Source of the DNA: Methylotenera sp.
GTDB lineage: Bacteria; Pseudomonadota; Gammaproteobacteria; Burkholderiales; Methylophilaceae
Length of the DNA: 64,000 bases
Direction: 5' to 3'
NCBI GenBank assembly: GCA_035393325.1
Contig: DAOOXC010000002.1
Span: 9,650 to 73,649 of the forward strand
Every line of letters begins with the position of its first letter. Positions within the stretch are counted from its first letter, which is position 1. The notes beneath the pieces were generated by a model. The model saw nothing but the letters and a program-made list of their open reading frames with translations. It ran no database searches and was not told the origin of the DNA. Positions 1,695-63,678 of this stretch are shown here, piece after piece. The translations under genes were made by a program, and so were the position numbers.

Positions 1695-1760
1695 CATCAT
1701 TTAAACTCCTCTGTAAGCCTTATTCCATGCGGCTTGCAGGGCATCAAAAATCTCTCGGGG
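1695..1760 (+). repeat. REP-like hairpin repeat, copy 1 (forward orientation)
   Basis: CATCATTTAAACTCCTCTGTAAGCC-TTATTCCATGC-GGCTTGCAGGGCATCAAAAATCTCTCGGGG, followed by ATTTTTTT. Confidence 0.85.
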
Positions 1761-1857
1761 ATTTTTTTATTATTTTTAATCATTTTTTTTGTTTGACGCA
1801 GAGGGTTGCGTTGGTTAGTATTCTGAGCAAAATCACCACAAATTAAAGGGGTAAGTC

Positions 1858-2253
1858 ATGCTGATTATTTTCATTGTTATTAACATTATTTTGCTGGTGA
1901 TGATGTTTTTAGCACGCTCTGCGCTACAGTCTTTTTTGTCAAAGCATCAAGCGATGAACTCAGCCGAGGCGATGGCAGATTTTAAGCTAGTGGCGCGCAT
2001 GAATATGTATGGTGCGTTGGTGTATTTGGTGGGTGGTTTGGCGGTGCTGGCTATGGGGGTAATGTTGGTGATTAAAATGGGCATTATCGGGATGCTGGTG
2101 GCGATACTATTTAGTTTGCCTTCGTTGTTTTTAAGTTTAAATGTTAAAAAGTTAGAAGAGAATAGTAAAAGTTTGCCTTGGGAGCAATCGCTAAATGATG
2201 AATACGAACACGTAAAAGAAGTTTGGGTGAAAAAAGCGTTGCCAGATTTTTAG
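1858..2253 (+). CDS. hypothetical small membrane protein
   Basis: 131-aa ORF with an AAAGGGG RBS-like motif upstream and three hydrophobic segments. No family recognised. Confidence 0.5.
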   Translation: MLIIFIVINIILLVMMFLARSALQSFLSKHQAMNSAEAMADFKLVARMNMYGALVYLVGGLAVLAMGVMLVIKMGIIGMLVAILFSLPSLFLSLNVKKLEENSKSLPWEQSLNDEYEHVKEVWVKKALPDF

Positions 2254-2322
2254 GTGGTTTGGGGCTGGTTTAAGTTAAAATAGCGCTAATTTCATTGAAA
2301 TTTTACTGAGCGAGCATTGATT

Positions 2323-3417
2323 ATGTCGGGCAATACCATAGGCACACTTTTTACCTTCACTTCGTTTGGCGAGTCGCACGGCGCGGCTATTGGCGGCGTG
2401 GTGGATGGTTGCCCACCGGGTTTAGCGTTAAGTGCTGAAGATTTGCAAATTGATTTAGACCGCCGCAAACCGGGTACTTCACGCCACGTCACGCAGCGCA
2501 GCGAGGCCGACGCGGTGGAAATTTTATCTGGTGTGTTTGAAGGCAAAACTACAGGTGCGCCCATTGGTTTGCTCATTCGCAATACCGACCAACGCAGCCA
2601 AGATTACAGCAAAATCATGAATACCTTCCGCCCCGGCCATGCGGATTACACTTATACACAAAAATACGGCGTGCGCGACTATCGCGGTGGTGGACGTTCT
2701 AGCGCACGAGAAACAGCAGTGCGCGTAGCGGCGGGCGCAATTGCAAAAAAATGGCTAAAAGAAAAATTTGGTGTGCAAATTCGCGGGTTTTTAAGCCAAT
2801 TGGGCGAGATTGAAATTCCGTTTGTGAGTTGGGATGCGCTAAACGACCTTGAAAACAAATTGTTTTCCCCTAATTTAGAAATCATGCCAAAGCTTGAAGC
2901 GTATTTAGATAATATCCGCACTGAACGCGATTCTGTTGGCGCAAAACTCACCGTAGTGGCTGAAGGCGTGCCTGTAGGCTTAGGTGAGCCGATTTTTGAT
3001 AGGCTAGATGCGGAAATTGCCTATGCCATGATGAGCATTAACGCGGTGAAGGGCGTAGAAATAGGCGATGGTTTTGCCAGTGTGGCGCAACGCGGCAGTG
3101 TGCATTCCGATGAAATGACGCCAGAAGGCTTTGTGAGCAATCACGCAGGCGGCATTTTAGGTGGAATTTCAACAGGTCAAACCATTAGCGTCAATGTGGC
3201 GTTTAAGCCTACTTCCAGCATTCCGCAAGAGCGTCGCTCGATTGATAAAGATGGCAATGCGGTGATGATGCAAACTACTGGCCGCCACGACCCGTGCGTG
3301 GGCATACGCGCTACGCCAATTGTCGAGGCAATGCTAGCTTTGGTGCTGATGGATCACGCTTTGCGCCATCGCGCGCAAAATGCGGATGTGGCATGTAAAA
3401 CCCCAAAGTTGGCTTAA
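2323..3417 (+). CDS. aroC: chorismate synthase
   Basis: [20 protein letters not shown]...GRHDPCVG, full-length AroC signature. ATG at 2323 preferred over the TTG at 2317 used by the ORF track. Confidence 0.95.
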
Positions 3418-3529
3418 ACGTAGGAAGTTGATTTAGGTCATGGTTTCTGTTGTTTAAAAGTTTGATAATGGTGGTGTGATTCGTCGTATTCGTAGCACAC
3501 ATAAAACAAATTTTTAATTAGGAGAACCT

Positions 3530-3766: not shown

Positions 3767-3790
3767 TCGTTCGTCAGCGTAAATCGCGTT

Positions 3791-3820
3791 AAAAAAAGTC
3801 GGCGTAAGCCGACTTTTTTT
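3791..3820. terminator. bidirectional intrinsic terminator
   Basis: AAAAAAA-GTCGGC-gtaa-GCCGAC-TTTTTTT. Confidence 0.85.
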
Positions 3821-3872
3821 GTTATTGTGCTAGCAATCAATATTTTAGCTTTTCACCTAGTAGAAACCCATT

Positions 3873-7068: not shown

Positions 7069-7203
7069 GCTAAATATTCTAATCTAAAATCAATTTGCAA
7101 CGGCTATGTTTTGGTGCAACTTGCCAAGGTAACGCGTATTTTTGCCTACACTTCACCGGCACAATATTGAATATAATTAAAAGTGATATTGAGTAAAACT
7201 TGT

Positions 7204-7267
7204 CCGAGAGAAAATTATACGTCTGCAACCCGCATGCAGACTGGATTAGCGGGCAGGTGAAATGATT
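7204..7267 (-). repeat. REP-like hairpin repeat, copy 2 (reverse orientation)
   Basis: Reverse complement reads AAATCATTTCACCTGCCCGCTAATCC-AGTCTGCATGC-GGGTTGCAGACGTATAATTTTCTCTCGG. It lies 37 nt downstream of the stop of the minus-strand S4 gene. Confidence 0.8.
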
Positions 7268-7303
7268 TGTGTGAAAATTGGCTGAATTTATAATGAATTA
7301 TAG

Positions 7304-7525
7304 TTATTTTTGGGCAATGATTTTAATGGTACTTCCCATACATTCCACCACTTGCCCAGCGCGAATTTTGGCAGTTTTGCGTAGTTCAATTTCGCCATCT
7401 ACCGTCACCAAACCTTCGGCAACAAACGCTTTGCCTTGGCCGCCGCTGTCAGCAATACCTTCAATTTTGAGTAAATCGCATAGGGCGATAAATTCGTTTT
7501 TGAGTTCAAACGTGTTGATTTGCAT
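7304..7525 (-). CDS. S4-domain RNA-binding protein (YbcJ family)
   Basis: 73 aa. FIALCDLLKIEGIADSGGQGKAFVAEGLVTVDGEIELRKTAKIRAGQVV is the YbcJ-type S4 fold signature. Its start lies 2 nt after the cobU stop. Confidence 0.75.
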   Translation of the reverse strand: MQINTFELKNEFIALCDLLKIEGIADSGGQGKAFVAEGLVTVDGEIELRKTAKIRAGQVVECMGSTIKIIAQK

Positions 7526-9397: not shown

Positions 9398-11224
9398 TTA
9401 CTCAGGTTGATAGCGAATGTTGATAAATAAATTAGCGCCTGAAGTGTTGTAAGGCTCACCACCAAAATCCAGTCCCAAAGCATATTCTTTATCGAGTATG
9501 TTGTTGGCGCGCGCCTGTACTGACCAATCTTTTGCAAACTGGTAATTTACCGTGGCATTGATTAGCGCGTAGCCACTTAATTTTGCAGTATTGCTCGCGT
9601 TGTTATAACGTACAGACGAGGCGGTAGCTTCAGCCCCAAACCGCCAATCTGCCATTTGGTAGTTAGCGTTTAAATTGGCATGCCGATTTGCACGGCGCAC
9701 CAATAGATTGCCAGATTTCTCATCTTCAGGCGATTGAATATCTACGCTGCCGCCCAGATGTAAATCACCCAATTGCTGACTTGCGCTTAAGCTCAGGCCG
9801 TTGATGCGCGCTTTGTTTACATTCATGACGTTAAAGGCATCGTCATAGCCAATTAGGTCGCGGATTTTATGGTGAAAAATTGTCGCTGATGCCGATGTGT
9901 TGTCTGCCTGATAACGCAAGCTGGCCTCTACATTGCGCGATTTTTCAGGTGATAAATTCGGGTTGCCAAAAAATGGATAGTATAAATCGTTAAAAGTTGG
10001 CGCTTTAAAAGCTGTGCCTATGCTGGCGGTGGCGCGCCAGCTTGGGTTAAATTTAAACCCGTAGCCTATGCTGCCAGTGTTGTGGCTGCCAAATTGCGAG
10101 TTGTTATCGTGGCGTGCGCTTAGTTGCAAGGAATGCGCATCGCCATTAAGCAAATAACTGGCCACAAAACCATCGTTTTCGCGTTCATTCTCGGTAAAGT
10201 TAACAGTTGATTTTACCTTTTGGTTTAAGTTGTCATAAAGCAAGGTGAGTGTGCCTACGGGTAGCTTAAAGTCGTTTTGCCAACTAAGTTGAAATTGTCT
10301 GGTTTTGAATAAATCGCCACCTTTTACGCTAAATTCATCATACGTGCGGCTTTCATCCGCACCTTCGCCAATACGCACTTTTGAAAGCCATAAGTCGGTA
10401 AATTGATTGTGGCTAAACACTGCAAAACTGTATTGTTTTGAGTCAGCTTTGCTATCAAAGTTAGAGCCATTAAAGGGGTTATCAAAATGTACGCGTCCGT
10501 CACTGTGTAAAAACTGTAAGCCGACTTCATGTCCGGCTTCAATTTGGTGAGACAAATTTCCAGAAAAAGCCAAATTACGATAAGCATCTTTATCGTTGTA
10601 GTCTTTATTTTTGGTATCAATGGCGGAAAAACTGTTCGTATCAAGACTGGATACATTCAGTGCGAAACGTGTATCGACGGCACTGCCGCGCACGCCTGCA
10701 TTGGCACGTTTGGTGTTGTAAGTGCCGTACCCTAAACTGGCATTTAATTTTGGTGCGCCGTCGCCTTTTTTGGTGAAAATTTGAATCACGCCGCCAATCG
10801 CATCTTGCCCGTAAAGCGTAGAGGCAGGTCCGCGTAAAATTTCAATTCTATCAATTTGACCAATTGGCAAGTTTTCAAAAGCGGTAGAACCTAGCGTGGC
10901 AGAATCCACGCGCATACCATCAATCAACACCACCACATGGCTGGCATTGGTGCCGCGTATGAAAATACCAGAAACCGTGCCTGCGCCACCGCTACTGCTC
11001 ATTTCGATACCCGCTTGGCGAGATAACACTTCAACTAAAGTAGATTGCCCGGCACGCTGAATTTCTTCGTTATCAATCACGGTCACATCAGCAATCGTAC
11101 TTTCGCGGGCTTGTGGTGTGCGAGAGGCGGTGACGACCATGTCTTTCAAATCTATCGTGTCAGCAGCGTAAACGGGAGAGCAAAGTACCAGCGCAATGAG
11201 GCTGGAAAGGGTGGTTTTTTTCAC
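9398..11224 (-). CDS. btuB: TonB-dependent vitamin B12 outer-membrane receptor
   Basis: Signal peptide (V)KKTTLSSLIALVLCSPVYA, TonB-box-like DTIDLKDMVVTA, plug motifs (IEILRGPASTLYG) and a beta-barrel. GTG at 11224 preferred over ATG at 11338, which would abut the riboswitch. A B12 riboswitch lies directly upstream. Confidence 0.85.
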   Translation of the reverse strand: MKKTTLSSLIALVLCSPVYAADTIDLKDMVVTASRTPQARESTIADVTVIDNEEIQRAGQSTLVEVLSRQAGIEMSSSGGAGTVSGIFIRGTNASHVVVLIDGMRVDSATLGSTAFENLPIGQIDRIEILRGPASTLYGQDAIGGVIQIFTKKGDGAPKLNASLGYGTYNTKRANAGVRGSAVDTRFALNVSSLDTNSFSAIDTKNKDYNDKDAYRNLAFSGNLSHQIEAGHEVGLQFLHSDGRVHFDNPFNGSNFDSKADSKQYSFAVFSHNQFTDLWLSKVRIGEGADESRTYDEFSVKGGDLFKTRQFQLSWQNDFKLPVGTLTLLYDNLNQKVKSTVNFTENERENDGFVASYLLNGDAHSLQLSARHDNNSQFGSHNTGSIGYGFKFNPSWRATASIGTAFKAPTFNDLYYPFFGNPNLSPEKSRNVEASLRYQADNTSASATIFHHKIRDLIGYDDAFNVMNVNKARINGLSLSASQQLGDLHLGGSVDIQSPEDEKSGNLLVRRANRHANLNANYQMADWRFGAEATASSVRYNNASNTAKLSGYALINATVNYQFAKDWSVQARANNILDKEYALGLDFGGEPYNTSGANLFINIRYQPE

Positions 11225-11344
11225 AAAATTTTCCTTGATGGCACACGCGACCCCGCATGTGAATTTATCAACAAAAATACTAGGGAGGAAAAATGAAAAA
11301 AACGCAGTAAAAATACCGAACGTTTTATACACCGTCACCCCGCG

Positions 11345-11690
11345 GTATTTTCAACTATTTAGTTGCGAGGCCGGTCTCCGGGCTTGTGAGTGATGAAGGT
11401 CTGCACAATCAAATCGCGGTGTTGCTGTAGTGCTCGCATGCTTGCCGTACTATGCGTACTGTCTTCGCATGCTGTGCGCTACGCGCCTTGCGTTTTGTTT
11501 GCTCGCCACTTCATCTTAACTTGCGCCTTCCCAAGAAGATTTAAAAAAATCTTATCTCAGTGGCTGTATTGCAAGTAAGCTCACTTACCGTTGCGGGGGC
11601 AGCATAGGCATTATTTTTTATCAGAGACAAAATGCACCTATTTCCCAGTTTCACCTCGTTTGTAAGAACACAAACAAGGCACCTAACAAC
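11345..11690 (-). promoter_or_regulatory. cobalamin (B12) riboswitch in the btuB leader
   Basis: Minus strand reads ...GGTGAAACTGGGAAATAGGTGC...GCTGCCCCCGCAACGGTAAG...AGCCACTGAGA...TGGGAAGGCGCA...[long variable arm]...AAGCCCGGAGACCGGCC. The last segment matches the B12 box AGYCMGGAGACCKGCC and lies at 11367-11384. Boundaries are approximate. Confidence 0.85.
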
Positions 11691-11711
11691 ATGTGCGCAT
11701 TATAGCTTTTA

Positions 11712-11740: not shown

Positions 11741-11760
11741 AAATAGTGGCTTTATTTTTG

Positions 11761-11827
11761 CCGAGAGATTTTTATGCCTCTGAAAGCCGCATAGAATAAG
11801 GCTTCCAGAGCAGGTGTTAGGAAGATG
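11761..11827 (-). repeat. REP-like hairpin repeat, copy 3 (reverse orientation)
   Basis: Reverse complement reads CATCTTCCTAACACCTGCTCTGGAAGCC-TTATTCTATGC-GGCTTTCAGAGGCATAAAAATCTCTCGG. It starts 9 nt downstream of the stop of the minus-strand channel gene. Confidence 0.85.
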
Positions 11828-11835
11828 CGTGAAAT

Positions 11836-12795
11836 TTAGCTTGAAAGTGCTTTTAAAACGAGCGCGAAATTGATGGTGATGTAGCCTACTAAAATTCCCC
11901 AAAAAGCGAGCTTATCTAAGCGTAGCGCTTTGACTTTGCGATTTTCAAAATATTGCCCAGAAATATAAATTACCATTACCACGATAAGCAAAATAGCACC
12001 AAAAGTGACATTATGGATGCTATCAATCATGGTGTTTTGGGTTGTGGTGGGGACAATGTTTTCAACAATATATTTGTTGCCCACTGCCGCAAATAAACCA
12101 CCCACTGCCAACTCTACGCGGCTGTCAGAATCGGCTGGTTTAATTCTAAATACCATTAAAGCAATCATAAAAGCGACATATAGCCCTGTGACCAACTTAA
12201 TAAATGTCGTCCACGAATAAGTTCTGGTTAGGCTGATGTCAGCTTGTATGCTTGGGTAGCTACTTGAGCCTTGTAACTCGGGGTCGCCATACGTGGTGTC
12301 GTAATTCGCATTTTTAGCACTGATGGTAAATGCATCCACTATCCAATTTTCCATCTTTAATTGATTGCTCACTTTGGAGTTTTGGATGTCCGCGATATAG
12401 TTTAGCGCATTTGAGTCCAGCATCGTTTCTTCAAGGTTGATGGTGAGTTGCTGCTTATCAAATGGAAAGTTACGCACGTCCCAATCTTGCAAAATAGTTG
12501 CGGTGCACTTTTTTTGCTCCCAATTTACGGTCAATTTTTTTTGTGTAGCAAAGTTTGAGCAAATGGTTTTTTTAGACTTAATGACTTCTTGGGAATCTTT
12601 AAAATTGAGGTTGTCGTTGCTATGTAAGCTCCAGGTCCAAAATTCAGCCACATAGCTACCATCGGCCAGATTAAAGTCGTAAAGGTTGGTGATGTAAATG
12701 CCTACTTTGACCTCTTCCTTTTGGGCTGCATCCGCTTGGGCTGCCGTAGCCTGAAAGCTAGCAATTAACATCAAAAGCGCACATATTTTATTCAA
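11836..12795 (-). CDS. prokaryotic pentameric ligand-gated ion channel (Cys-loop receptor/GLIC-ELIC family) homologue
   Basis: Signal peptide and a ~200-aa beta-rich extracellular domain containing WDVRNFPFDKQQLTINL (the FPFDxQ Cys-loop-equivalent motif). Four C-terminal TM segments follow (M1 FIKLVTGLYVAFMIALMVF, M2 VELAVGGLFAAVGNKYIV, then NIVPTTT..., M3, short loop, M4). Confidence 0.75.
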   Translation of the reverse strand: MNKICALLMLIASFQATAAQADAAQKEEVKVGIYITNLYDFNLADGSYVAEFWTWSLHSNDNLNFKDSQEVIKSKKTICSNFATQKKLTVNWEQKKCTATILQDWDVRNFPFDKQQLTINLEETMLDSNALNYIADIQNSKVSNQLKMENWIVDAFTISAKNANYDTTYGDPELQGSSSYPSIQADISLTRTYSWTTFIKLVTGLYVAFMIALMVFRIKPADSDSRVELAVGGLFAAVGNKYIVENIVPTTTQNTMIDSIHNVTFGAILLIVVMVIYISGQYFENRKVKALRLDKLAFWGILVGYITINFALVLKALSS

Positions 12796-12832: not shown

Positions 12833-13867
12833 TTAAAAGCTACGACTCACAGAAAAATCAGTTAAGGTGATTAAAGCTGTTTTAAAGGTGGATTCGGGTA
12901 AGTGCGCAATCACAGTGCGGGCTGATGCGGCTTCTTGCTCGGCAATCGTGCGCACATGCTGCAATGCGCCGGTGCGTTGCACTGCGTTCAGAATCGTGGA
13001 GAAGTCATCTAAGCCGCCATGTTTAATGGCGTGCTTAATAGCTGCCGATTCTACGACATTGCCGTGCTGCATTGCATAAAGCAAAGGTAGCGTCGGCTTG
13101 CCTTCGTTAAGGTCATCACCCAAGTTTTTACCAATATCCAATACGTTGCCACTTAAATCTAGCACGTCATCAATCAACTGAAAGGCCGTGCCAATATGCA
13201 TGCCATATAAACTCAATGCTTTTTCATCTTCAGCGGAAGCGTTACCAATAATTGCGCCAAGCTTTGCGGCAGCTTCAAATAGCTTAGCGGTTTTATATTG
13301 AATAACTTGTAAATAATTTTCGTCTGTCATGTCCACATTGTGTACATTTAATAGTTGCAGAACTTCACCTTCGGCAATCACGTTGGTAGCGTTGCTGAGC
13401 ACTTCCATGACACGCATGTTTTGCACGCTGACCATCATCTGAAAAGCACGAGAATATACAAAATCACCTACCAGCACGCTGGCGGCATTGCCAAATAGTG
13501 CATTGGCGGTATTTTTGCCACGGCGTTTTGCAGATTCGTCCACTACATCATCATGCAACAAGGTGGCTGTGTGGATAAACTCAACCACGGCTGCCAGTTG
13601 GTGGTGCTCAGGTTTGATGGGGCCAAACAAGCCAGCGGAAAGTAATACCAGCATGGGGCGCAAGCGTTTGCCACCACTGTTAATAATATAGTTGGCAACT
13701 TGGTTCACTAGGGTTACTTCAGAGTGAAGTGATTTTGCAATCACGGCGTTTACCGCTAGCATGTCACCAGCAACGGGGGTTTGGATAAGATGAAGCTGAT
13801 TGCTACTCGAAGTCACGGGGCTATACCTGTACGATTTGACCGATAAAAATTGCAGGCATTTTAACAC
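12833..13867 (-). CDS. ispB: octaprenyl-diphosphate synthase
   Basis: GGKRLRP, LLHDDVVDES (first DDxxD) and FQLIDDVLD (second DDxxD). Divergent from rplU, as in many proteobacteria. The true start may be downstream of 13867. Confidence 0.9.
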   Translation of the reverse strand: MLKCLQFLSVKSYRYSPVTSSSNQLHLIQTPVAGDMLAVNAVIAKSLHSEVTLVNQVANYIINSGGKRLRPMLVLLSAGLFGPIKPEHHQLAAVVEFIHTATLLHDDVVDESAKRRGKNTANALFGNAASVLVGDFVYSRAFQMMVSVQNMRVMEVLSNATNVIAEGEVLQLLNVHNVDMTDENYLQVIQYKTAKLFEAAAKLGAIIGNASAEDEKALSLYGMHIGTAFQLIDDVLDLSGNVLDIGKNLGDDLNEGKPTLPLLYAMQHGNVVESAAIKHAIKHGGLDDFSTILNAVQRTGALQHVRTIAEQEAASARTVIAHLPESTFKTALITLTDFSVSRSF

Positions 13868-17651: not shown

Positions 17652-18827
17652 ATGAGTGATAGCAAAGTAATTACACCACCTGCTATGTTGGGTATGTTGG
17701 GTGGCGGTCAGCTTGGCCGTTTTTTTGTCATTGCAGCCCATGAAATGGGCTATAAAGTGACCGTGCTGGACCCTGATAAAAATAGCCCAGCAGGTAAAAT
17801 TGCTGATGTCCATTTGTGTGCCAATTATGATGATGAAACCGCATTGGCAGAAATGGAAAAAACTTGCCAAGCGGTGACAACAGAGTTTGAAAATGTACCT
17901 GCAAGCACGCTTGAAAAGTTAGCGCTTACTACAACCGTTCGCCCCAGTGGTGCAAGCGTGGCGATTGCTCAGAATCGGGTATTAGAAAAAAGATTTATTA
18001 AAGAGGCTGGTTTGCCAGTAGCACCGTTTGCAGTGATAAATACCAATGCAGACTTACCTAGTGACGCTAGTCCACTCTACCCTGCCATTCTTAAAGTGGC
18101 GCGTTTTGGCTACGATGGCAAAGGTCAAGCGCGTGTGAAAAATCAAGCTGAAGCGCAAGCTGCGTTTAACACGTTCAAGCAAGAAATCTGTGTCTTAGAG
18201 CAAATGTTGCCGCTTGATTTAGAGGTTTCGGTGGTGCTTGCGCGTGACAGCAAGGGAAATATTGAGGCATTCACTACGGCTGAAAATAGTCACTTAAACG
18301 GTATTTTGGATATTAGTATTGCACCAGCACGTTGTTCAGAAGTGCTCAAGGCTAACGCTCGTGAGTTAGCAAAAAAACTAGCTGAAAAGCTCAATTATGT
18401 AGGTGTGTTGGGTGTTGAGTTTTTTGTAGTTGGCAATCAGTTGCTTGTCAATGAGATTGCACCACGTCCGCATAACTCCGGCCACTATACAATAGATGCT
18501 TGTATAACGAATCAGTTTGAGCAGCAAGTGCGCGTGCTCGCAGGTTTGCCTCTAGGTGATGCCAGTATGCACAGCAATGCGGTGATGGTGAACATCTTAG
18601 GTGACAGTTGGTTTTCTAATACGGAAAGCGCCCGAGAAAAAAATACCCCTCTGGAACCCGCATGGAATAAGGCTTGCAGCCATGCTAACTTGAAGTTACA
18701 TCTTTATGGTAAGGCGGAACCTAGAGTCGCACGCAAAATGGGTCACTTTACAGTGATAGGTCAAGATACTAAAAAAGTATTGAATGCAGCGTTAATTGCC
18801 CGAGGCGAATTGCATATTGGTGAATAG
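17652..18827 (+). CDS. purK: N5-carboxyaminoimidazole ribonucleotide synthase (ATP-grasp)
   Basis: LGMLGGGQLGRFF, YDGKGQ, NEIAPRPHNSGHYT; adjacent to purE. Confidence 0.9.
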   Translation: MSDSKVITPPAMLGMLGGGQLGRFFVIAAHEMGYKVTVLDPDKNSPAGKIADVHLCANYDDETALAEMEKTCQAVTTEFENVPASTLEKLALTTTVRPSGASVAIAQNRVLEKRFIKEAGLPVAPFAVINTNADLPSDASPLYPAILKVARFGYDGKGQARVKNQAEAQAAFNTFKQEICVLEQMLPLDLEVSVVLARDSKGNIEAFTTAENSHLNGILDISIAPARCSEVLKANARELAKKLAEKLNYVGVLGVEFFVVGNQLLVNEIAPRPHNSGHYTIDACITNQFEQQVRVLAGLPLGDASMHSNAVMVNILGDSWFSNTESAREKNTPLEPAWNKACSHANLKLHLYGKAEPRVARKMGHFTVIGQDTKKVLNAALIARGELHIGE

Positions 18828-27500: not shown

Positions 27501-27818
27501 ATGGTTGACTTAAGTTTTGCATTTACAGGTGAATGCTGGCTTTGGACAGCAGAAAATCAAGTGTGCTGGCATTTTGTTACTTTGCCGCAAGATAAATCAG
27601 ACGAAATCAAATTTTTTAGTAAAAACTTGCGTGGACAACGCCGCGGTTGGGATATGGTGCGGGTCACTGTCACCATTGGTAAAACCAGTTGGGAAACTTC
27701 AATTTTTCCTTATGCAAAAACCAATGCCTATATTTTGCCGATTAAAGCAGAGGTGCGAAAAAAAGAAAAAATTTCCGCCGGCGATTCATTGCACATTTCA
27801 CTTAAAATTAACGTGTAA
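27501..27818 (+). CDS. DUF1905 domain protein
   Basis: 105 aa. WHFVTLPQD...VRVTVTIGKTSWETSIFP...YILPIKAEVRKK, typical of DUF1905. Confidence 0.7.
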   Translation: MVDLSFAFTGECWLWTAENQVCWHFVTLPQDKSDEIKFFSKNLRGQRRGWDMVRVTVTIGKTSWETSIFPYAKTNAYILPIKAEVRKKEKISAGDSLHISLKINV

Positions 27819-27845
27819 TGAAATTATTTTTTCAGCTAAAAAATC

Positions 27846-27911
27846 CCCCGAGAGATTTTTGATGCTCTGCAAGCCGCATGCAGACTGGCTTGCAGAGGAG
27901 GTGAAATGATG
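27846..27911 (-). repeat. REP-like hairpin repeat, copy 4 (reverse orientation)
   Basis: Reverse complement reads CATCATTTCACCTCCTCTGCAAGCC-AGTCTGCATGC-GGCTTGCAGAGCATCAAAAATCTCTCGGGG, an 11-bp perfect stem. It lies between convergent genes. Confidence 0.9.
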
Positions 27912-27954
27912 TTGTGCTAAATCAGCCTAAAATTAAGCAATTTTTTTTGTTATT

Positions 27955-34829: not shown

Positions 34830-34848
34830 GTGGCAGTGTTTGAAAAAA

Positions 34849-36957: not shown

Positions 36958-37007
36958 CAGAATTTGAGGCGCTGAAATTGAGTGTTTTTAGCCTGATTCT
37001 AGTTGAA

Positions 37008-37073
37008 CATCATTATCGATGCTCTGCAAGCCAGTATCCTTGCGGCTTCCAGAGCATCGAAAAATCCTCGCAG
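37008..37073 (+). repeat. REP-like hairpin repeat, copy 5 (forward orientation)
   Basis: CATCATTATCGATGCTCTGCAAGCC-AGTATCCTTGC-GGCTTCCAGAGCATCGAAAAATCCTCGCAG. 17-bp stem with one mismatch. It lies 51 nt after the receptor stop. Confidence 0.85.
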
Positions 37074-37142
37074 TAAATTAAGTGATTTATTTTAACAAAT
37101 ACGGTAACGAAAAATTAGACTGACAATTGGCTGGATTTGTGA

Positions 37143-37161: not shown

Positions 37162-37324
37162 ATTATTGGCTGGTGAAGCTGACAGCCAAAATAATGCAAA
37201 TTTAAAGCGTCAGATTGCTTACAATCACAGGTAACAAAAGGTTATATGGTATATTTGCCAGTTTTGAATGGTGGCGATTAGCTTAAATGTGCCAACGCAA
37301 TATTTTAGTTGAAAGTTTTAGGTG

Positions 37325-45792: not shown

Positions 45793-46317
45793 ATGAAAAA
45801 GCAAGGTTTAGTTTTTGGTGCGGTGTTGCTTGCAACATTGCTGGCAGGGTGCGCAAGCAATTCCCCGCGCGAAAATCAAGTACAGCGCCTCACCCCTGAA
45901 GAAGTGGCAAAACTCACCCCCGCTGCTGTGCCCACTTTGAGCTTGGATGAGATTATCGTGCTTTCCAAGCAGGGCACATCGGCAGATGACATCATCGCAA
46001 AAATTAAAAGTAGTAACTCGCAATATGACCTCACCGCCAGCCAAATGGTGGATTTAAGCAAGCAAGGTGTGGATGCCAAAGTGCTGGATTTTATGCAAGC
46101 TGAACGCGAAAAAATGCGCTTGAACAGTATGGCGGAAGAAATTAACAAGCGTGAGAAAGCCAATAGAGAAGCGCAAGAGAAACTAAAAAATCAATCGTTA
46201 CGTTACCGTTACGACCCATTTTATGACCCTTTTTACCACCCGTTTTATGGCTACGGTTTTAGCCCATATTGGGGTAACCATTTTTACTTCAATAATATTC
46301 ACAGGCGCAGAAGATGA
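45793..46317 (+). CDS. hypothetical lipoprotein
   Basis: Lipobox LLAGC at residues 17-21. Aromatic-rich C-terminal tail YDPFYDPFYHPFYGYGFSPYW. Confidence 0.6.
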   Translation: MKKQGLVFGAVLLATLLAGCASNSPRENQVQRLTPEEVAKLTPAAVPTLSLDEIIVLSKQGTSADDIIAKIKSSNSQYDLTASQMVDLSKQGVDAKVLDFMQAEREKMRLNSMAEEINKREKANREAQEKLKNQSLRYRYDPFYDPFYHPFYGYGFSPYWGNHFYFNNIHRRRR

Positions 46318-46381
46318 GCTTGCCTTTTGCAATGAAAATACATTGCTTAAAAAGGCATATTTTAAGCGTTTTTTAAACTAA

Positions 46382-46448
46382 CATCATTTCACCCCCTCTG
46401 TAAGCCACTCTGTATGCGGCTTCCAGAGGCATGAAAATTTCTCGAGGG
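46382..46448 (+). repeat. REP-like hairpin repeat, copy 6 (forward orientation)
   Basis: CATCATTTCACCCCCTCTGTAAGCC-ACTCTGTATGC-GGCTTCCAGAGGCATGAAAATTTCTCGAGGG, followed by TTTTT. Confidence 0.9.
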
Positions 46449-46511
46449 TTTTTGTTGGGTGATTTTAAGTCGCGTTATAATGTTGCTTTATGTTCATTCA
46501 TTCACCAAAAA

Positions 46512-46931
46512 ATGCGCCAAATCAACCACCAAATTAGCCTATCAACAAAAGGCAGAAAACTCTATGACATCACCCCAGAAGTGCTGCATTGGGTAAAAAA
46601 TTGCGGCATCACAACAGGCTTGCTCACGCTGTACATTCAGCACACTTCAGCCAGTTTGTTGATTAACGAAAATTATGATTCTGACGTGTTGGTGGATATG
46701 GAAGCGTTTTTTAATCGTCTTGTGCCAGATGGCGACAAATTGTTTATTCACACTGTTGAAGGCCCCGACGATATGCCTGCGCATGTGCGTAGCGCCTTGA
46801 CGCAAACGAGTTTGTCGATGCCTGTATTGCAGGGCAAACCAACGCTTGGTCAATGGCAAGGTATTTTTTTGTACGAGCATCGGCATATTGCCGCTAACCG
46901 CCGTGTAATTTTGCATGTCATAGGCGAATAA
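46512..46931 (+). CDS. YjbQ-family (UPF0047) secondary thiamine-phosphate synthase-like protein
   Basis: LYDITPEV...LLTLYIQHTSASLLINENYDSDV...DDMPAHVRSAL...GQWQGIFLYEHR. ATG at 46512 preferred because the longer ORF runs through repeat copy 6. Confidence 0.8.
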   Translation: MRQINHQISLSTKGRKLYDITPEVLHWVKNCGITTGLLTLYIQHTSASLLINENYDSDVLVDMEAFFNRLVPDGDKLFIHTVEGPDDMPAHVRSALTQTSLSMPVLQGKPTLGQWQGIFLYEHRHIAANRRVILHVIGE

Positions 46932-52500: not shown

Positions 52501-52638
52501 CAGGTGCAAGGTCAAGTAGATATTGATGACAAGCAAAATATTTCAGGTAAGTTGAGCGCTAATTTATATACCCCCACCCGAAACTTTCAAACGCAATATG
52601 ACCTAACGGGCAAAATTGACAATGTAAAACGAAAGTGA
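49594..52638 (+). CDS. 1014-aa protein: small N-terminal globular domain, ~440-aa E/A/K/R/Q-rich helical tract, one TM helix, ~390-aa AsmA-like C-terminal domain
   Basis: Long uninterrupted ORF. The charged tract runs from about residue 118 to 555, with recurring ARLEAERIAxEAEE-like units. A basic stretch (SSRKKLRLPK..KRFIRF) precedes the TM helix LVIYVPILALVLLGFMHFAPL. The C-terminal region (GTPVKVGEVRASLWPQPHFVLQQVTLG...) resembles the AsmA-family N-terminal motif. Confidence 0.8.
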   Translation: MMNLTAIYTKTAEGLRVRKALFGGLSAPLKRVIDLVDGHESVQAIAKQLSDMPESKVIAAVTQLEKDGYIKYLSEATTEDDWEFGTVFSPMVVEEIEVEDQLDFPADLAPSQLAEIVEANRLEDERKAREIKAQIRLKEKAKAEIEENARIEAQRIAQEAIEKEKTENQARAKAALEAKLKAEAEELARQLAEQKAREEAEKIQQEKDRLEREAQALAEASAAAEAQAKLEAEAKKQAEENEKARLEAERIASEAAEVQRQADLRAAKIIAEEEAKAAEEALRIAQLQAIREAEERANAEAEQIAVELRLKQEAEDKIRIEAERAAREAEEKQRNAEETLHKAELEAQALVERIRAKEKARREQVRKTREEEAAKQKADEEAKAAEDARLAQEQQARQEAEAQERALAEARAIEEAKQKARLEAERILREEENARREAEEAARLEAERIAQEEEATRRKAEEAELQKAQEEAEEISRLAAEKQARLEAETIALAQEEARAEKERVAQEKARAAQEKAEEKARVKAEEKAQKEAEKRAKQEQKAARAAEKAAQKLAKMQTIAPMGAHDSRLGADDGDREILSWEVMQAQIKHQSSRKKLRLPKVLSASNLKIWFKRFIRFLVIYVPILALVLLGFMHFAPLTMLVEPVEKIASDSLGTPVKVGEVRASLWPQPHFVLQQVTLGEKKSILNVGVAHIEPEISTLFDKTKVMHSITVDGLNIAQEDYAIPLQSVNKLIASDQLDVRAIQFKNVKLNINEFVFGTFDGWVDFDKTRGLSGLEMKSVEQALTLHIRPVNGTYQVMMKAQQYKLPFGEKVVFDEITAHGLYQQNQVNFDQIDGEIYGGDFNANALLNWQNAWQITGDFKLNKVNTQQVLKAFSSAGSVDGKLTLSGNFNAHSTSAATLMDAAEVNASFEVPNSKISGIDIPRNIVTPTDQSLEGYATYFDKLSGNLKVANGRYQYRNLVLKSAKLQVQGQVDIDDKQNISGKLSANLYTPTRNFQTQYDLTGKIDNVKRK

Positions 52639-54352: not shown

Positions 54353-55222
54353 ATGTCAAAAGATTTAGATAACCTAGTTGGGCGCGCCGAGCATTTATTA
54401 GCACGTCTGGAAGCCTTATTCCATGCGCCTTCCAGCCCGGTGGATTGGAATAGCACCGCTTGGCGATGGGTAAAAGCAGGCAATAAAGGCTATCTACAGA
54501 CTATCGCTCACCCACACCAAATCGCGCTGGATAACATTCAGTTTGTGGATTCGCAAAAAGCTAAAATTGTGCGCAACACCCAGCAATTTTTAAAAGGCTT
54601 GCCTGCCAATAACGTACTGCTCACGGGTACGCGCGGGACTGGAAAATCCAGCTTAATCAAAGCATTACTCACGGCCTATGCACAAGAGGGTTTGCGCTTA
54701 ATTGAGGTTGAGAAGCACGACTTAATCCACTTGCCTGAAATTGTGGAGCTGATTCGCAATCGCCCAGAAAAATTCATTATTTTTTGTGATGACCTGACGT
54801 TTGAAGCCAATGATGAAAGTTACAAAGCCCTGAAAGTGGTGCTGGATGGCTCGGTGGCAAGCACTTCGGAAAATATGCTGGTGTATGCCACATCTAACCG
54901 TAAAAACTTGATGCCCGAGTTTATGGCAGATAATTTAGCCACCAAACATTGGGATGGCGAAATTAGGCCCAGCGACACCATAGAGGAAAAAACTGCCTTG
55001 GCAGAGCGTTTCGGCCTGTGGCTGGCGTTTTACGCGTTTGACCAAGACGAATATTTGGCCATTGCAGAAAACTGGTTGAAGACATTCAATATCCCTTGGG
55101 ATGAAACTGCCCACAAAGCAGCATTAGAATTTACCCATACGCGCGGTGCCCGCAGTGGCCGCGTGGCGTATCAATTTGCGCGTGATTACGCGGGCAAGTT
55201 GCAATTGAATAGTAAGCCGTAA
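54353..55222 (+). CDS. DUF815 AAA-type ATP-binding protein
   Basis: NNVLLTGTRGTGKSSLIKA Walker A, IIFCDDLTFE Walker B-like; 289 aa. Confidence 0.8.
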   Translation: MSKDLDNLVGRAEHLLARLEALFHAPSSPVDWNSTAWRWVKAGNKGYLQTIAHPHQIALDNIQFVDSQKAKIVRNTQQFLKGLPANNVLLTGTRGTGKSSLIKALLTAYAQEGLRLIEVEKHDLIHLPEIVELIRNRPEKFIIFCDDLTFEANDESYKALKVVLDGSVASTSENMLVYATSNRKNLMPEFMADNLATKHWDGEIRPSDTIEEKTALAERFGLWLAFYAFDQDEYLAIAENWLKTFNIPWDETAHKAALEFTHTRGARSGRVAYQFARDYAGKLQLNSKP

Positions 55223-56160
55223 TGCTAGGTCAGCAAGTCACCCACGCTGCCGTTGGCGTGATTCAGCGTGAAGATGGTTGGGTGCTGTTAGGCCAACGCC
55301 CTGCAGGCAAACCTTGGGCGGGCTGGTGGGAATTTCCCGGCGGTAAAATTGAAAACGGTGAAAGTGCAGAAAATGCCTTAAAGCGTGAACTGCACGAAGA
55401 ACTTGGCATTACCGTTACGCAGCTTTATCCGTGGCTCACGCGCACGTTTGATTACCCCGAAAAAACCGTCAAACTCCATTTTTTTCGCGTGGCATGCTGG
55501 CAAGGCGAGCCGCACGGGGCAGAAGGCCAACACTTAAGCTGGCAAAATCCGATGGATTTACAGGTTTCGCCCATGTTGCCTGCCAACGCGCCCATTATCC
55601 AAGCTTTGCATTTACCCAGTGTGTATGCCATTACCAATTTGGCGGAGTTAGGCGAAGTGGCATTTTTTACCAAGCTAAAAACGGCACTTGAAAATGGCCT
55701 GCGGCTGATTCAAATACGTGAAAAGCAGCTATCGCCAGATGCCCTCAAAGCCTTTACGCAACAAGTGATGACGCTGGCTGACCCTTACTGCGCCAGCGTG
55801 TTGGTGAATGCTGATATTGCGTTAGCGCAATCGGTGGGTGCCAGCGGCGTGCACTTTACCTCTAAGCAATTGATGCAATTAGACAAAAAACCGGAAAACT
55901 TACGCTGTGCGGCCTCCTGCCATAACGCGCAAGAACTTGCCAAAGCCGCACAACTGGGTTTGGATTTTGTCGTAATTTCCCCTGTTTTACCGACTCAAAG
56001 TCACGCCGATGCGCAGCCTTTAGGCTGGCAAAATTTTAGAAATTTAGTGCGAGATTTTCCAGTGCCGGTGTACGCATTGGGCGGCATGCAAACGCAAGAT
56101 TTAACTGCTGCTTGGCAACATGGCGCACACGGCATTGCCATGCAGCGTGGGGTTTGGTAA
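55222..56160 (+). CDS. mutT: Nudix hydrolase (MutT-like) fused to a ThiE-like (thiamine-phosphate synthase fold) domain
   Basis: Nudix box GGKIENGESAENALKRELHEELGI. The C-terminal half has LIQIREK...GVHF...ISPVLPTQSH...YALGG. This fusion is common in betaproteobacteria. Confidence 0.85.
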   Translation: MLGQQVTHAAVGVIQREDGWVLLGQRPAGKPWAGWWEFPGGKIENGESAENALKRELHEELGITVTQLYPWLTRTFDYPEKTVKLHFFRVACWQGEPHGAEGQHLSWQNPMDLQVSPMLPANAPIIQALHLPSVYAITNLAELGEVAFFTKLKTALENGLRLIQIREKQLSPDALKAFTQQVMTLADPYCASVLVNADIALAQSVGASGVHFTSKQLMQLDKKPENLRCAASCHNAQELAKAAQLGLDFVVISPVLPTQSHADAQPLGWQNFRNLVRDFPVPVYALGGMQTQDLTAAWQHGAHGIAMQRGVW

Positions 56161-56210
56161 GGGTAATTTTTGCGCTATAAAATGCTTAATTTTTAAGCAG
56201 ATTTAACAAC

Positions 56211-56276
56211 AAATCATTTCACCACCTCTGTAAGCCAGTATCCATGCGGCTTCCAGAGGCGTAAAAATCTCTCGGG
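56211..56276 (+). repeat. REP-like hairpin repeat, copy 7 (forward orientation)
   Basis: AATCATTTCACCACCTCTGTAAGCC-AGTATCCATGC-GGCTTCCAGAGGCGTAAAAATCTCTCGGGG. It lies between convergent genes. Confidence 0.9.
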
Positions 56277-56304
56277 GAAATTTGTGCTGAAATTAAAACG
56301 GTTT

Positions 56305-56754
56305 TTATCTTACAAATTCTTTAATCGGCAGGGTCATGGTTTGGTGCGTTTCCTCACCATTTTTGGATTTAAAACATAAGGTCAACTCAACTTGGTCGCC
56401 TGCTTTGAGCGGTTTTTGAAGCCCAAATAACATTAAGTGCAAGCCGTTAGGCGCTAGTTTGGTGGGTTTGCCCGCTTGAATTGGCAGGCTTTCAATACTG
56501 CGCATTTTCATCACGCCATTTTTCATTTCCATGCTGTGAATTTCTACCGATTCTGCTACATCAGCATCGGCAGCCACGAGCGTGATATTTTCATCATAAG
56601 AGAGCGTCATGTAAGCCGCGCCGACTTTTTGCCGCGGTGCGGTGGCGCGTACCCAAGCGTCTTGTACGTTGACAGGTTTGGCCTCGCCAGCAAAACTGGT
56701 GGCGCTGAAAACAGCAATAAATAAGGCTAAAATGCATTTAACTAAATGGCGCAT
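56305..56754 (-). CDS. periplasmic copper chaperone PCu(A)C (DUF461)
   Basis: Signal peptide and the H(M)x10Mx21HxM-type motif region VEIHSMEMKNGVMKMR...GLHLML. Confidence 0.8.
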   Translation of the reverse strand: MRHLVKCILALFIAVFSATSFAGEAKPVNVQDAWVRATAPRQKVGAAYMTLSYDENITLVAADADVAESVEIHSMEMKNGVMKMRSIESLPIQAGKPTKLAPNGLHLMLFGLQKPLKAGDQVELTLCFKSKNGEETHQTMTLPIKEFVR

Positions 56755-59347: not shown

Positions 59348-59520
59348 CTGGACCTCTTTTTTACTTATTTTTAATAAGCCTCATGTAAACTTAGCGCATC
59401 ATCGCACCGTTATAGAATTGTGGCAATAAGATAAGGCTTGAAAAATAGCTTTTAGCCACCACTTAAAACAGTAAGATGGTTGTTTGGGCATGTACGATAT
59501 GCCGCAGTAAAGGAAATAAA

Positions 59521-59910
59521 ATGACAGAAAATAATCAACATAACGCTATAGACGCTGGTAATACTGAGCTCCACCACCCAGAGTGGGATGAGCCTATTGT
59601 GTGCCGTGTGGAAGTGGATTTGCCCAAATGGTTGCGCCAGTTAACTGGTAGCGATTGGGAAGTATATTCAGAAGAAGAAGCAGAAAACTGCATTAGTTTT
59701 GCCATGCGTAAAAATGGCGCGCATACACAAAAAATGCCACTCAACCTTACGCCAAGCTTGGCTGAAGTGACCTTGTACCACAATGGCTATGCGGTGGTGG
59801 ATGTGGACGGGAAATCTTTGTTTGACGGTTCGCTCACTTCTGGTGGCAGTGATTTTGCCCATTTAACCTATTACCATGCGGATAGTGGTGAAAAAATCAC
59901 GCTGAATTAA
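59521..59910 (+). CDS. hypothetical soluble protein
   Basis: 129-aa ORF with an AAGGAAA RBS 5-11 nt upstream of the ATG at 59521. No family recognised. Confidence 0.45.
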   Translation: MTENNQHNAIDAGNTELHHPEWDEPIVCRVEVDLPKWLRQLTGSDWEVYSEEEAENCISFAMRKNGAHTQKMPLNLTPSLAEVTLYHNGYAVVDVDGKSLFDGSLTSGGSDFAHLTYYHADSGEKITLN

Positions 59911-59960
59911 GACTAATTTTAAAGTTTTATTTTAGCTAAAAATACCCACTCTTCCTATTT

Positions 59961-60001
59961 GATGCCCTGCAAGCCAATATCCATGCGGCTCGCAGGGCAT
60001 C
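59961..60001 (+). repeat. REP-like hairpin repeat, copy 8 (core hairpin only), acting as a terminator-like structure
   Basis: GATGCCCTGCAAGCC-AATATCCATGC-GGCTCGCAGGGCATC followed by ATTTTTT. The loop is near-identical to copies 5 and 7, but the flanking CATCATTTCACC and CTCTCGGGG modules are absent. Confidence 0.7.
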
Positions 60002-60085
60002 ATTTTTTGCACGGCGTGTTATTAAGCCATATTTTGGCAAATTTTTACTGCTTAGTTTTAGCTTGCTCAATCTAAGTAACACGAT

Positions 60086-62197: not shown

Positions 62198-62210
62198 AGA
62201 TGTGGCATAA

Positions 62211-63587
62211 ATGACTGAAAACACAATTACATCGTCTGCTAAAAAAGGCCGCATTTATGCCCCTTGGGAGCACACTTTTAACCGTGTGCTTAGCCCCTTT
62301 GAGGCGTTTATACAACGCCAAACGACCAGTGGCTTGCTATTGATGGGCACAGCGATTGTTGCGCTCATATTAGCCAATAGTTCTTTAGCAGATGCCTACC
62401 AGCACCTTATTCACACGCCTGTAACACTTGCCATAGGCGGGTGGGGCATAGATATGAGCCTGCACCATTGGGTAAATGATGGCTTGATGGCTTTGTTTTT
62501 CTTTGTGGTGGGCTTAGAACTTAAGCGTGAAATGATGGTGGGCGAGCTTTCTAACATCCGCCACGCAGCCCTGCCTGTGGTGGCGGCGATAGGCGGTATG
62601 GTCATGCCAGCGCTGATTTATTTGGCTTTTAATCATCAGGGTGATGCCATGCGTGGCTGGGGTGTGCCAATGGCAACTGATATTGCTTTTGCAGTGGGTG
62701 CGTTAGTGCTATTGGCCAGCCGCGTACCCAAAGCATTGATTACTTTTTTAGTGGCGTTGGCGATTGCTGATGATTTAGGTGCGGTGCTGGTGATTGCGCT
62801 GTTTTACACGCAAGCGCTATCACTACACTGGTTGGGTGCGGCGTTGGCCATGTTGGCGCTGCTGTTTACGCTAAATTTTGCGGGCATTCGCAAAGTGATG
62901 CCGTACATTATTTTAGCGGTGCTGCTGTGGTATGCCTTACTGCAATCTGGCGTACATGCAACGCTGGCAGGCGTGCTGGGCGCATTTGCAGTGCCAGCGA
63001 GGTCAAAATATGACCCCAATTTATTTGCGGCACGTATTAATGAACAAATTGACCACTTTTTGGCCAACCACCAGCAAGATGACACCGTATTAACCAATGA
63101 AAATTTGCATAGCGTGGTGCAAAACCTTGAAGAAAGCGTTAAAGGCGTGCAAACGCCGCTACAGCGCTTAGAAAGCATTTGGCATCTCCCCGTCGCTTTT
63201 TTGGTGATACCCATTTTTGCGCTATTTAACGCAGGTATTCCATTGCAATTCAATGCGTTGGGCGCAACGCTCACGCACCCTGTGATGTTGGGTGTGGCAT
63301 CTGGTTTGCTTTTTGGCAAATTTATTGGCATCACGGGTGCTTGCTGGCTTGCCCTTAAATTGGGCATTGGGCAATTGCCAAGTGGCACGCGATTTAGTCA
63401 AATTATGGCGGTTTCGGTACTTGGCGGTATTGGTTTTACCATGTCGATTTTTATTTCAGAATTAGCATTTGCAAATCAACCAGAATATTTGCTTATGGCT
63501 AAAACGGGCGTGTTGTTGGCTTCACTTTTGGCAGGCTTCATTGGCTTTGTTTGGTTGTGGTTTTTGGGCAGAAAAACCGCATCTTAA
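62211..63587 (+). CDS. nhaA: Na+/H+ antiporter NhaA
   Basis: WVNDGLMALFFFVVGLELKRE, ALAIADDLGAV. Confidence 0.95.
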   Translation: MTENTITSSAKKGRIYAPWEHTFNRVLSPFEAFIQRQTTSGLLLMGTAIVALILANSSLADAYQHLIHTPVTLAIGGWGIDMSLHHWVNDGLMALFFFVVGLELKREMMVGELSNIRHAALPVVAAIGGMVMPALIYLAFNHQGDAMRGWGVPMATDIAFAVGALVLLASRVPKALITFLVALAIADDLGAVLVIALFYTQALSLHWLGAALAMLALLFTLNFAGIRKVMPYIILAVLLWYALLQSGVHATLAGVLGAFAVPARSKYDPNLFAARINEQIDHFLANHQQDDTVLTNENLHSVVQNLEESVKGVQTPLQRLESIWHLPVAFLVIPIFALFNAGIPLQFNALGATLTHPVMLGVASGLLFGKFIGITGACWLALKLGIGQLPSGTRFSQIMAVSVLGGIGFTMSIFISELAFANQPEYLLMAKTGVLLASLLAGFIGFVWLWFLGRKTAS

Positions 63588-63613
63588 GCCCAAATAAAAT
63601 CGCATGAAAATCG

Positions 63614-63678
63614 CCCGAGAGAAAATCATGCCTCTGGAAGCCGCATCCAGACTGGCTTAGCGGGCAGGCTAAATGAAG
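63614..63678 (-). repeat. REP-like hairpin repeat, copy 9 (reverse orientation)
   Basis: Reverse complement reads CTTCATTTAGCCTGCCCGCTAAGCC-AGTCTGGATGC-GGCTTCCAGAGGCATGATTTTCTCTCGGG. It lies between convergent genes. Confidence 0.85.

Follow-up and report, generated by a model that had tools for sequence, protein, structure and literature searches.

The 64,000-nt window analysed here (positions 9,650 to 73,649 of contig DAOOXC010000002.1, Methylotenera sp. assembly GCA_035393325.1) carries 11 copies of a hairpin repeat that forms a new family in the class of dispersed hairpin repeats resembling repetitive extragenic palindromic (REP) elements. In the window's lineage the element totals ~85 nt including its two conserved flanking arms; an earlier interpretation made from the letters alone (the sequence-only reading) had recognised the hairpin and put the length at ~66 nt. 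A covariance model (CM) built from 59 copies, all from contigs other than the window, and run over the window with all filters off, returns ten full-length matches (40-96 bits, E 2e-9 to 7e-27) and, besides, one weak match to the hairpin core at 54407-54435(+) (E=0.013). The nine copies already listed lie within a few nucleotides of where they had been placed and have the architecture described for them (57-96 bits, E 1e-14 to 7e-27 with this outside-built model), and two had been missed, at 18620-18705(-) in purK and at 54407-54435(+) in a DUF815 gene. Among known proteins, the PurK and DUF815 of this metagenome contig have their nearest matches in ones labelled Methylotenera sp. or Methylophilaceae bacterium. 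A strict hairpin pattern matches twice in the window against 0.00 expected, the 3' arm motif four times against 0.08 expected, and a repeat finder recovers families on both strands.

The first copy (1685..1770, +; CM 84.7 bits, E 3.4e-23; loop TTATTCCATGC) lies 289 nt past the stop of gene 883-1395 and 87 nt ahead of gene 1858-2253; directly in front of it, at 1652-1690, is a distinct canonical terminator hairpin. The next copy, of the CCCGCTAA subfamily (7192..7277, -; 57.2 bits, E 1.2e-14), lies 26 nt past the stop of the S4_2 gene 7304-7525(-), and a third (11749..11834, -; 76.4 bits) begins 1 nt past the stop of gene 11836-12795(-), 47 nt upstream of a cobalamin riboswitch. Within purK (17652-18827, +), a full-length segment resembling the element lies antisense to the gene (18620..18705, -; 40.5 bits, E 2e-9). 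The copy at 27836..27921 (-; 93.1 bits) occupies the convergent gap between a DUF1905 gene (27501-27818, +) and a DUF808 gene (27955-28872, -), with stops 17 nt and 33 nt away, and the copy at 36998..37083 (+; 68.2 bits), whose stem is extended to 16 bp in the predicted fold, lies 40 nt past the stop of a TonB-dependent receptor gene (34840-36957, by Pfam) and 238 nt ahead of a tonB-like gene (37322-38017). At 46372..46457 (+; 86.9 bits) the element follows the stop of gene 45793-46317 by 54 nt; its overlap with ORF 46431-46931 is only apparent, because the UPF0047 domain begins at residue 46 and the start codon is thus over-extended. At 54407..54435 (+; 18.6 bits; nhmmer E 7e-5) only the hairpin core is present, read in frame as LEALFHAPS within the N-terminal part of the DUF815 ATPase (gene 54353-55222, +). 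The copy closest to consensus (56202..56287, +; 96.5 bits, E 7e-27; core 56225-56259) lies in the convergent gap between a NUDIX/TMP-TENI gene (55222-56160, +) and an LpqE-like gene (56305-56754, -). The copy at 59941..60026 (+; 60.9 bits), 30 nt past the stop of gene 59476-59910, had been taken for a bare core at 59961-60001 and is a diverged full-length element. The last copy, again of the CCCGCTAA subfamily (63603..63688, -; 71.5 bits), lies where nhaA (62211-63587, +; by Pfam) converges with a gene running from 63712 to the end (-), with stops 15 nt and 23 nt away. The distance of 10-110 nt past a stop codon proposed for the nine listed copies fails for the first, at 289 nt from the stop at 1395; the other eight lie at 1-54 nt.

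Two features adjoin these copies. The ~290 nt ahead of the first copy (1396-1690) hold no called gene and end in the strong canonical terminator TTGAGTCAAAAATTTTCAATTTTTGACTCATTTTTT (1652-1690); the segment has no Rfam match at E<=1 and may correspond to a small RNA or to a small ORF missing from the annotation. Downstream of the cobalamin riboswitch beside the third copy (11352-11701, -; 77.8 bits) comes a TonB-dependent receptor gene (9398-11338, -).

Beyond the window, the hairpin pattern with its 7-nt spacer was scanned in metagenomes and viral contigs; in the genome collection, a pattern with an 8-nt spacer picked out the ISL3-associated hairpin described below and unrelated terminators. 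At least 116 metagenome stretches matched, many of them on contigs of 100-520 kb and from several samples. These carrier loci (L numbers below) are metagenome stretches picked for holding at least one copy and so give no unbiased density. Profile searches of the window and ~1 Mb of carrier loci give ~200 non-overlapping matches, and the carrier sequence contains 140 non-redundant full-length copies; hundreds of copies per genome, as the sequence-only reading supposed, are plausible. The family is restricted to the Methylotenera-like lineage of the Methylophilaceae: among syntenic 21-kb regions of more distant relatives one (L142) has no match and another (L134) only a decayed relic in purK. 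No named family corresponds to it, in keeping with the sequence-only reading, which had matched it to no REP, BIME, Correia or ERIC family. Rfam 15 at the gathering threshold finds only the cobalamin riboswitch in the whole window, and a search around one copy at E<=10 gives nothing credible (best at most 20 bits, against gathering cut-offs of at least 47); annotated plasmid and phage collections hold no named match, and no repeat family described for Methylophilaceae was found in the searchable literature.

The core, an imperfect palindrome of 35 nt, reads CTCTG-N-AAGCC, then an 11-nt loop ending in ATGC, then GGCTT-N-CAGAG; its 5 bp, one usually mismatched position and further 5-6 bp are often lengthened by covarying pairs. 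Among 170 distinct copies, Watson-Crick pairing reaches 94-99% in the top five stem pairs and 75-98% in the five pairs below position 6; that position is mismatched in 67% (C.C 55, T.C 26, C.A 15), and covariation is seen at position 12 (C-G 72, G-C 46). Alignment A1 has 95.2% of its cells paired, against 27-54% with the partner slid by 1-3 columns, and its covariation score is reached by none of 500 shuffles; since most pairs never vary, these statistics mainly show a conserved palindrome. The loop exists in a few discrete variants (AGTATCC, AATATCC, AGTCTGG, AGTCTGC and TTATTCT/C), each followed by ATGC. On the 5' side the stem is flanked by the arm ...ACAACATCATTTCACC and on the 3' side by CATAAAAATCTCTCGGGG; the two are not complementary to each other, and comparison of the arms in the alignments shows no terminal inverted repeats. 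Immediately beside the stem, alignment A1 has ...CACC(T/A)C and GCAT(A/N)AAA.

The hairpin and its arms do not always point the same way. When arms and loop are given separate scores, 32 of the 140 full-length copies (23%) prove to have a hairpin that is turned round with respect to its arms, and many copies first classed as core-only turned out to be of this flipped type. A subfamily also exists in which the hairpin's 5' arm reads CCCGCTAAGCC instead of CTCTGNAAGCC, breaking the lower stem. It recurs at 7192-7277 and 63603-63688 in the window, at L102 71-156, at L105 2519-2603 and elsewhere, and since it recurs in many copies it is a propagated variant, not random decay. A small ORF on the reverse strand, MPLEAAWILACRGGEMMLC, was considered and rejected, its frame being shifted by a 1-nt length difference between subfamilies (CAGAGG-CAT vs CAGAG-CATC). 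By-eye inspection of the alignments found no outward promoter, IHF site, arm-to-arm pairing or anti-Shine-Dalgarno-like CACCTCC conserved enough to warrant a claim. A second repeat, GCATTCCGATGGTGGGGTATCGGAAC, occurs ~20 times in loci L014-L129 and is absent from the window even with 3 mismatches allowed.

The central observation of the sequence-only reading, a high-copy dispersed hairpin repeat concentrated just past stop codons, holds for the 140 full-length copies in ~1 Mb. Convergent gaps are enriched and hold 46 of them (132 such gaps exist in the same sequences), tandem gaps 76 (of 696 gaps) and divergent gaps 5 (of 126), while 4 are genic and 9 lie too close to a contig end to be classed. 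Copies of either orientation stand at a median of ~33 nt from the stop codon next to them; in tandem gaps the copy adjoins the stop of the upstream gene and the next start is ~90 nt off, whichever way the element points. No two neighbours lie closer than ~450 nt, and genes separate them. The copies occupy the zone just past stops, adjoining or replacing the gene's AT-rich terminator hairpin in either orientation, and are almost absent from promoter-bearing divergent gaps.

Orientation bears directly on the function first proposed for the repeat, an orientation-dependent cis-acting element of the 3' untranslated region (3'-UTR), either a terminator or a stabiliser, under selection at the RNA level. 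In the window the orientation does follow the upstream gene, as that proposal had it: the six tandem-gap copies are all co-oriented. The six are the favourable end of a weak tendency, however, as tandem-gap copies overall are 46 co-oriented to 30 anti-oriented with respect to transcription, a mild excess that is not significant (binomial p=0.085). Whatever the context, the forward strand folds as well as the reverse, with no energy difference between strands (about -17 to -18 kcal/mol for the main hairpin on either), and a test for RNA-level selection finds no asymmetry of G-U versus A-C between strands. The proposal also envisaged a second small hairpin followed by a U-tract as a terminator. 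T-runs are indeed present, after CTCTCGGGG in the copies at 1685, 27836 and 46372 and directly after the hairpin in that at 59941, and the forward 3' arm does fold ahead of such a run; the small hairpin is weak, however (-5.6 kcal/mol forward, -2.1 reverse), and the downstream arm, beyond TCTCGG, is not conserved. Hairpins flipped in 23% of copies, an orthologous site in L130 at which the element is inverted, copies lying behind native terminators, in-frame genic copies of which some are antisense to the gene, and the lack of an Rfam match all speak against an orientation-dependent RNA element, which we consider improbable.

A role at the ends of transcripts that does not depend on orientation is suggested by copies that lack the arms. 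In such copies paired A- and T-tracts often bring the stem to 15-25 bp, and many of the copies are A-tract/hairpin/T-tract terminators, as in L034 and at L135 12346-12418 (AAAATAGGTGCTCTGCAAGCCAATATCCATGCGCCTTGCAGAGCACCTATTTTATTTTTTTT), a site orthologous to the window copy at 27836. In the window, the copy at 59941-60026, whose 16-bp stem runs straight into TTTTTT (fold -30.1 kcal/mol, z = -5.2), has the predicted structure of a canonical intrinsic terminator on the + strand. The family's hairpin is also found, its loop one nucleotide longer (CAGTATCCATGC), in an ISL3-family insertion sequence (IS), 44 nt inward from the left end (GGCTCTTCAGG...), at L007 6225-6254 and also in L001 and L005. 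These three contigs belong to another, higher-GC betaproteobacterial metagenome-assembled genome, and after the hairpin, towards the transposase gene, comes TGTTTTC. Just inside the end of an IS is a common place for a terminator of read-through transcription. Three related IMG/VR phage contigs have one hairpin copy each (L138 4329-4357, L139 3760-3788, L141 10433-10461), with loops ACTATCCATGC or AGTATTCATGC and lying in AT-rich spacers, and in the viral contigs L137 and L140 a similar stem serves as a plain A-tract/T-tract terminator. From the arm-less terminator versions, copy 59941 and the ISL3 and phage occurrences, we infer that the core probably has a transcription-end function.

The full-length copies stand in a particular relation to the terminators of the genes they follow. 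Extra structure is found in the 45 nt outside the element on the side that faces a stop codon, be it the 5' or the 3' side (p=0.008, p=0.025). Sites orthologous to the window copy at 56202 are empty in L142, L134 and L136 and hold only a native terminator hairpin; in L142 and L134 this is an A-tract/hairpin/T-tract terminator, and the window keeps TGCTTAATTTTTAAGCA just 5' of its copy. Because of this stop-facing structure and the terminators at empty orthologous sites, many copies are taken to lie beside the gene's own terminator and not to replace it.

That the repeat is always intergenic, as had been claimed, is contradicted by in-frame copies in purK and DUF815 in the window and in ileS and bioB in relatives. 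In purK, a 73-nt stretch is ~79% identical to the reversed element consensus and is read in frame as ...SAREKNTPLEPAWNKACSH.... All of the 120 closest PurK orthologs keep LEPAW(NK or IL)A(C/L)SHANLKLHLYGK, in which NK and IL are the reverse-strand readings of the loop variants TTATTCC and AATATCC/AGTATCC, respectively. On a tree built without that segment the NK/IL state has switched at least nine times. The purK genes of L135 and L136 carry GCATGGATATT, the dominant loop variant among the other copies of those genomes, and the loop state of the window's purK likewise matches one variant circulating in its own genome. Burkholderia PurK structures have a different peptide of nearly the same length at this place, so the purK hairpin is not a simple insertion. 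In DUF815, the window's clade and scattered others have LEALFHAP where most orthologs have LExLLPAQ; at the DNA level this is a same-length patch of 30 nt with ~17 differences (~13/30 identical) from an ortholog that is 83% identical. The ileS genes of L135 (10608-10648) and L136 (15971-16012) contain FLQANTSAASKAVNN, encoded by CTGCAAGCCAATACCAGTGCGGCTTCCAAGG, and are 4 residues longer; this hairpin is lineage-specific, the window's ileS (22015-24924) having another peptide there. The N-terminus of bioB is hairpin-like in three other genomes (L073 ~3419-3478, L040 and L099), and ribF of L136 has a further in-frame hairpin (13493-13521).

A precedent for palindromic repeats that are read in frame in housekeeping genes, the added or changed peptide being tolerated, is provided by Rickettsia palindromic elements (RPEs). 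RPEs, however, are ~150-bp insertions that add residues, whereas here purK and DUF815 have the same length as homologues without the hairpin and ileS gains 4 residues. To judge from these comparisons the in-frame hairpins look like patch replacement, not insertion, and the same-length patches in purK and DUF815 suggest exchange of sequence from copy to copy. These patches, the loop variants shared within a genome and the hairpins flipped relative to their arms are best accounted for if exchange of short patches from one hairpin to another, by gene conversion or template switching, is the main means by which copies stay alike and spread, rather than cut-and-paste transposition. In a more far-reaching form of this proposal the hairpins would be a pool of exchanging patches that flips loops, keeps hundreds of old fixed copies alike and overwrites 30-70 nt of unrelated housekeeping genes (purK, DUF815, ileS, bioB) in frame with length unchanged, a proposal that we regard as tentative and with the chances somewhat against it.

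The positions themselves are old, the same sites being filled across species whose flanks are 73-90% identical. In syntenic regions of three other genomes (PurK 82-87% identical) the sites occupied in the window are occupied as well, namely those after the S4_2 gene, in the spacer that separates the btuB riboswitch from the gene preceding it, within purK and in the DUF1905/DUF808 convergent gap. The ortholog of the copy at 7192..7277 is L132 373-459, and that at 27836..27921 has full orthologs in L132 and L130 and the arm-less terminator version in L135. The copy at 11749..11834 has an ortholog in the same orientation in L132, while in L130 (4297-4382) the whole element, arms included, is inverted, which implies either independent arrival at the btuB site or inversion of the element. 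Where flanks are 73-96% identical, most orthologous pairings have a copy in both genomes, and the copies are 43-96% identical; loops drift between orthologs (TTATTCTATGC, TTATAAATAAA, ATATAAAATGC). Among 105 orthologous pairings there is no clean presence/absence polymorphism, and comparisons with empty sites give no insertion boundaries, as the flanking spacers are too diverged.

Traces of transposition have nonetheless to be weighed, above all those of the systems that the repeat most resembles. Like the REP elements and bacterial interspersed mosaic elements (BIMEs) of enterobacteria and pseudomonads, it is a short imperfect palindrome with a mid-stem mismatch and high copy number, found in both orientations after stops, between convergent or co-directional genes and rarely between divergent ones. 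Its dimensions are also those of REPs, which measure 20-40 nt, with a 35-nt core of 11 paired positions plus one usually mismatched and with 4/140 copies genic. Members of the family could be true REP elements whose single strands are moved by a REP-associated tyrosine transposase (RAYT) with one gene elsewhere in the genome, their placement after genes reflecting tolerated insertions. The size, mismatch, extragenic abundance and rarity in divergent gaps all suit such an origin, the lack of terminal inverted repeats and target duplications fits single-strand transposition of the HUH type, and REP super-families and intragenic members are described in the literature. REPs, however, carry a conserved unpaired tetranucleotide, GTAG or CGTC, at one end of the stem, and neither tag is found beside the stem in alignment A1; the loop has 11 nt, against 4-5 nt in the CGTC REP families; and copies are singletons, not inverted pairs or clusters. 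The two conserved non-palindromic arms and the flipping of the hairpin against them also set the repeat apart from REP/BIMEs. With 5-6 copies on each strand of the window under a GC skew that is positive throughout, there is no replication-strand bias. The window has no transposase gene, as already reported, and no RAYT-like ORF was found by a crude regular expression for HUH and Y..NP motifs among 1,074 called ORFs in ~1 Mb, which is a fraction of several genomes, or on inspection of the ORFs between neighbouring copies. Mobilisation by a RAYT is on these grounds unlikely.

Derivation from a transposon with a DDE transposase is another possibility, in which the repeat would be a miniature inverted-repeat transposable element (MITE), that is, a deletion derivative of, for example, an ISL3-family IS moved in trans. 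The hairpin with the CAGTATCCATGC loop near an ISL3-family left end invites this comparison, and the element's size and AT-rich arms are MITE-like. The arms, however, are not inverted copies of each other and are unlike the ISL3 end GGCTCTTC, and a tblastn search with the ISL3 transposase finds nothing in the ~1 Mb of carrier loci. No copy-specific target-site duplication is seen either among flank 8-mers of 106 copies in 400 offset combinations (best z 2.45, as expected by chance), and the lack of clean presence/absence polymorphism weighs against it too. A MITE origin has accordingly only a slim chance. The same absences separate the repeat from the Correia repeat enclosed elements (CREE) and enterobacterial repetitive intergenic consensus (ERIC) sequences, which are likewise abundant intergenic repeats co-transcribed with genes and altering termination or mRNA decay: those have terminal inverted repeats, and Correia elements in addition target duplications and promoters, none of which was found here. 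SPRITEs, as reviewed, are comparable in being dispersed repeats with a core like an intrinsic terminator; their sequence and phylum are unrelated, and most full-length copies here have no U-tract.

The stem is conserved in sequence and not in pairing alone, and the element works in either orientation, as might be expected of a site whose stem and ATGC loop edge are recognised at the DNA level by a nucleoid protein, a topoisomerase or a regulator, or of an inverted pair of DNA-uptake sequences such as occurs in Neisseria terminators. In Neisseria and the Pasteurellaceae, paired DNA-uptake sequences form terminators, the sequences being mostly single copies that also lie inside genes. Such paired terminators resemble the present repeat in that one stem sequence is common to many terminators and positions are kept between species, and we take the arm ATGCCTCTGCAA to resemble the Neisseria uptake sequence ATGCCGTCTGAA. 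Here, however, the 11-mer arm GGCTTNCAGAG never stands alone: all 281 of its 281 occurrences are within hairpins, with no single one in genes. This rules out an uptake signal consisting of a single motif, as in the DNA uptake sequence (DUS) and uptake signal sequence (USS) systems. As for a bound protein, the drift of loops between orthologous copies, ATGC included, indicates no strong constraint on the loop, and no candidate protein was found. A DNA-level site of either kind is, in our estimation, very improbable.

The reading that accommodates most of these features is a terminator-zone hairpin, spread and homogenised by patch exchange. The hairpin would serve as a structure at transcript ends, alike in both directions. 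Copies without arms, flanked by A- and T-tracts, would be canonical bidirectional intrinsic terminators; those with arms would provide a second stop and block 3'-to-5' exonucleases in the manner described for REP elements, for which positions near stop codons and roles in termination and in protection of mRNA 3' ends have been proposed. To this mechanism taken as a whole we give about an even chance.

Several points weigh against it. A T-rich tail is present in only 28/130 full-length copies, most having no U-tract directly after the main hairpin, and the A-rich/T-rich variant of the 3' arm is unlinked to orientation (Fisher p=0.76). Many copies lie behind a separate terminator-like hairpin, so that little transcription may reach them. 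Conservation of the stem sequence over hundreds of copies goes beyond the needs of a simple terminator and may point to a sequence-specific partner, and this reading leaves the conserved arms without a role. Gene conversion is read from patterns among the copies, and allelic recombination between strains could yield part of the patchiness of purK. Finally, genes in the loci were called with a simple and crude codon-usage caller, and the loci had been selected for carrying at least one copy.

Elsewhere in the window, gene 49594-52638(+) encodes a 1014-aa protein with a long low-complexity stretch rich in Glu, Ala, Lys and Arg, and coincides with the strongest AT skew of the window (0.195, 48-52 kb).

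Methylophilaceae are abundant methylotrophs in lakes and wastewater, and the CM and consensus provide a marker for annotation and strain typing. The repeat shows a rare combination of long-fixed positions, copies that are alike within a genome, and in-frame hairpin patches in essential genes. Should an overlooked RAYT explain the family, it would be an ordinary new REP family. If the alikeness and the patches instead reflect templated exchange, the family would offer a tractable system for the persistence of REP-like repeats without an obvious transposase, and could show how such repeats remodel terminators and protein loops. The repeat family would then be a template that recurrently rewrites tolerant protein segments, by a way of spreading that is neither transposition nor insertion of the RPE type.

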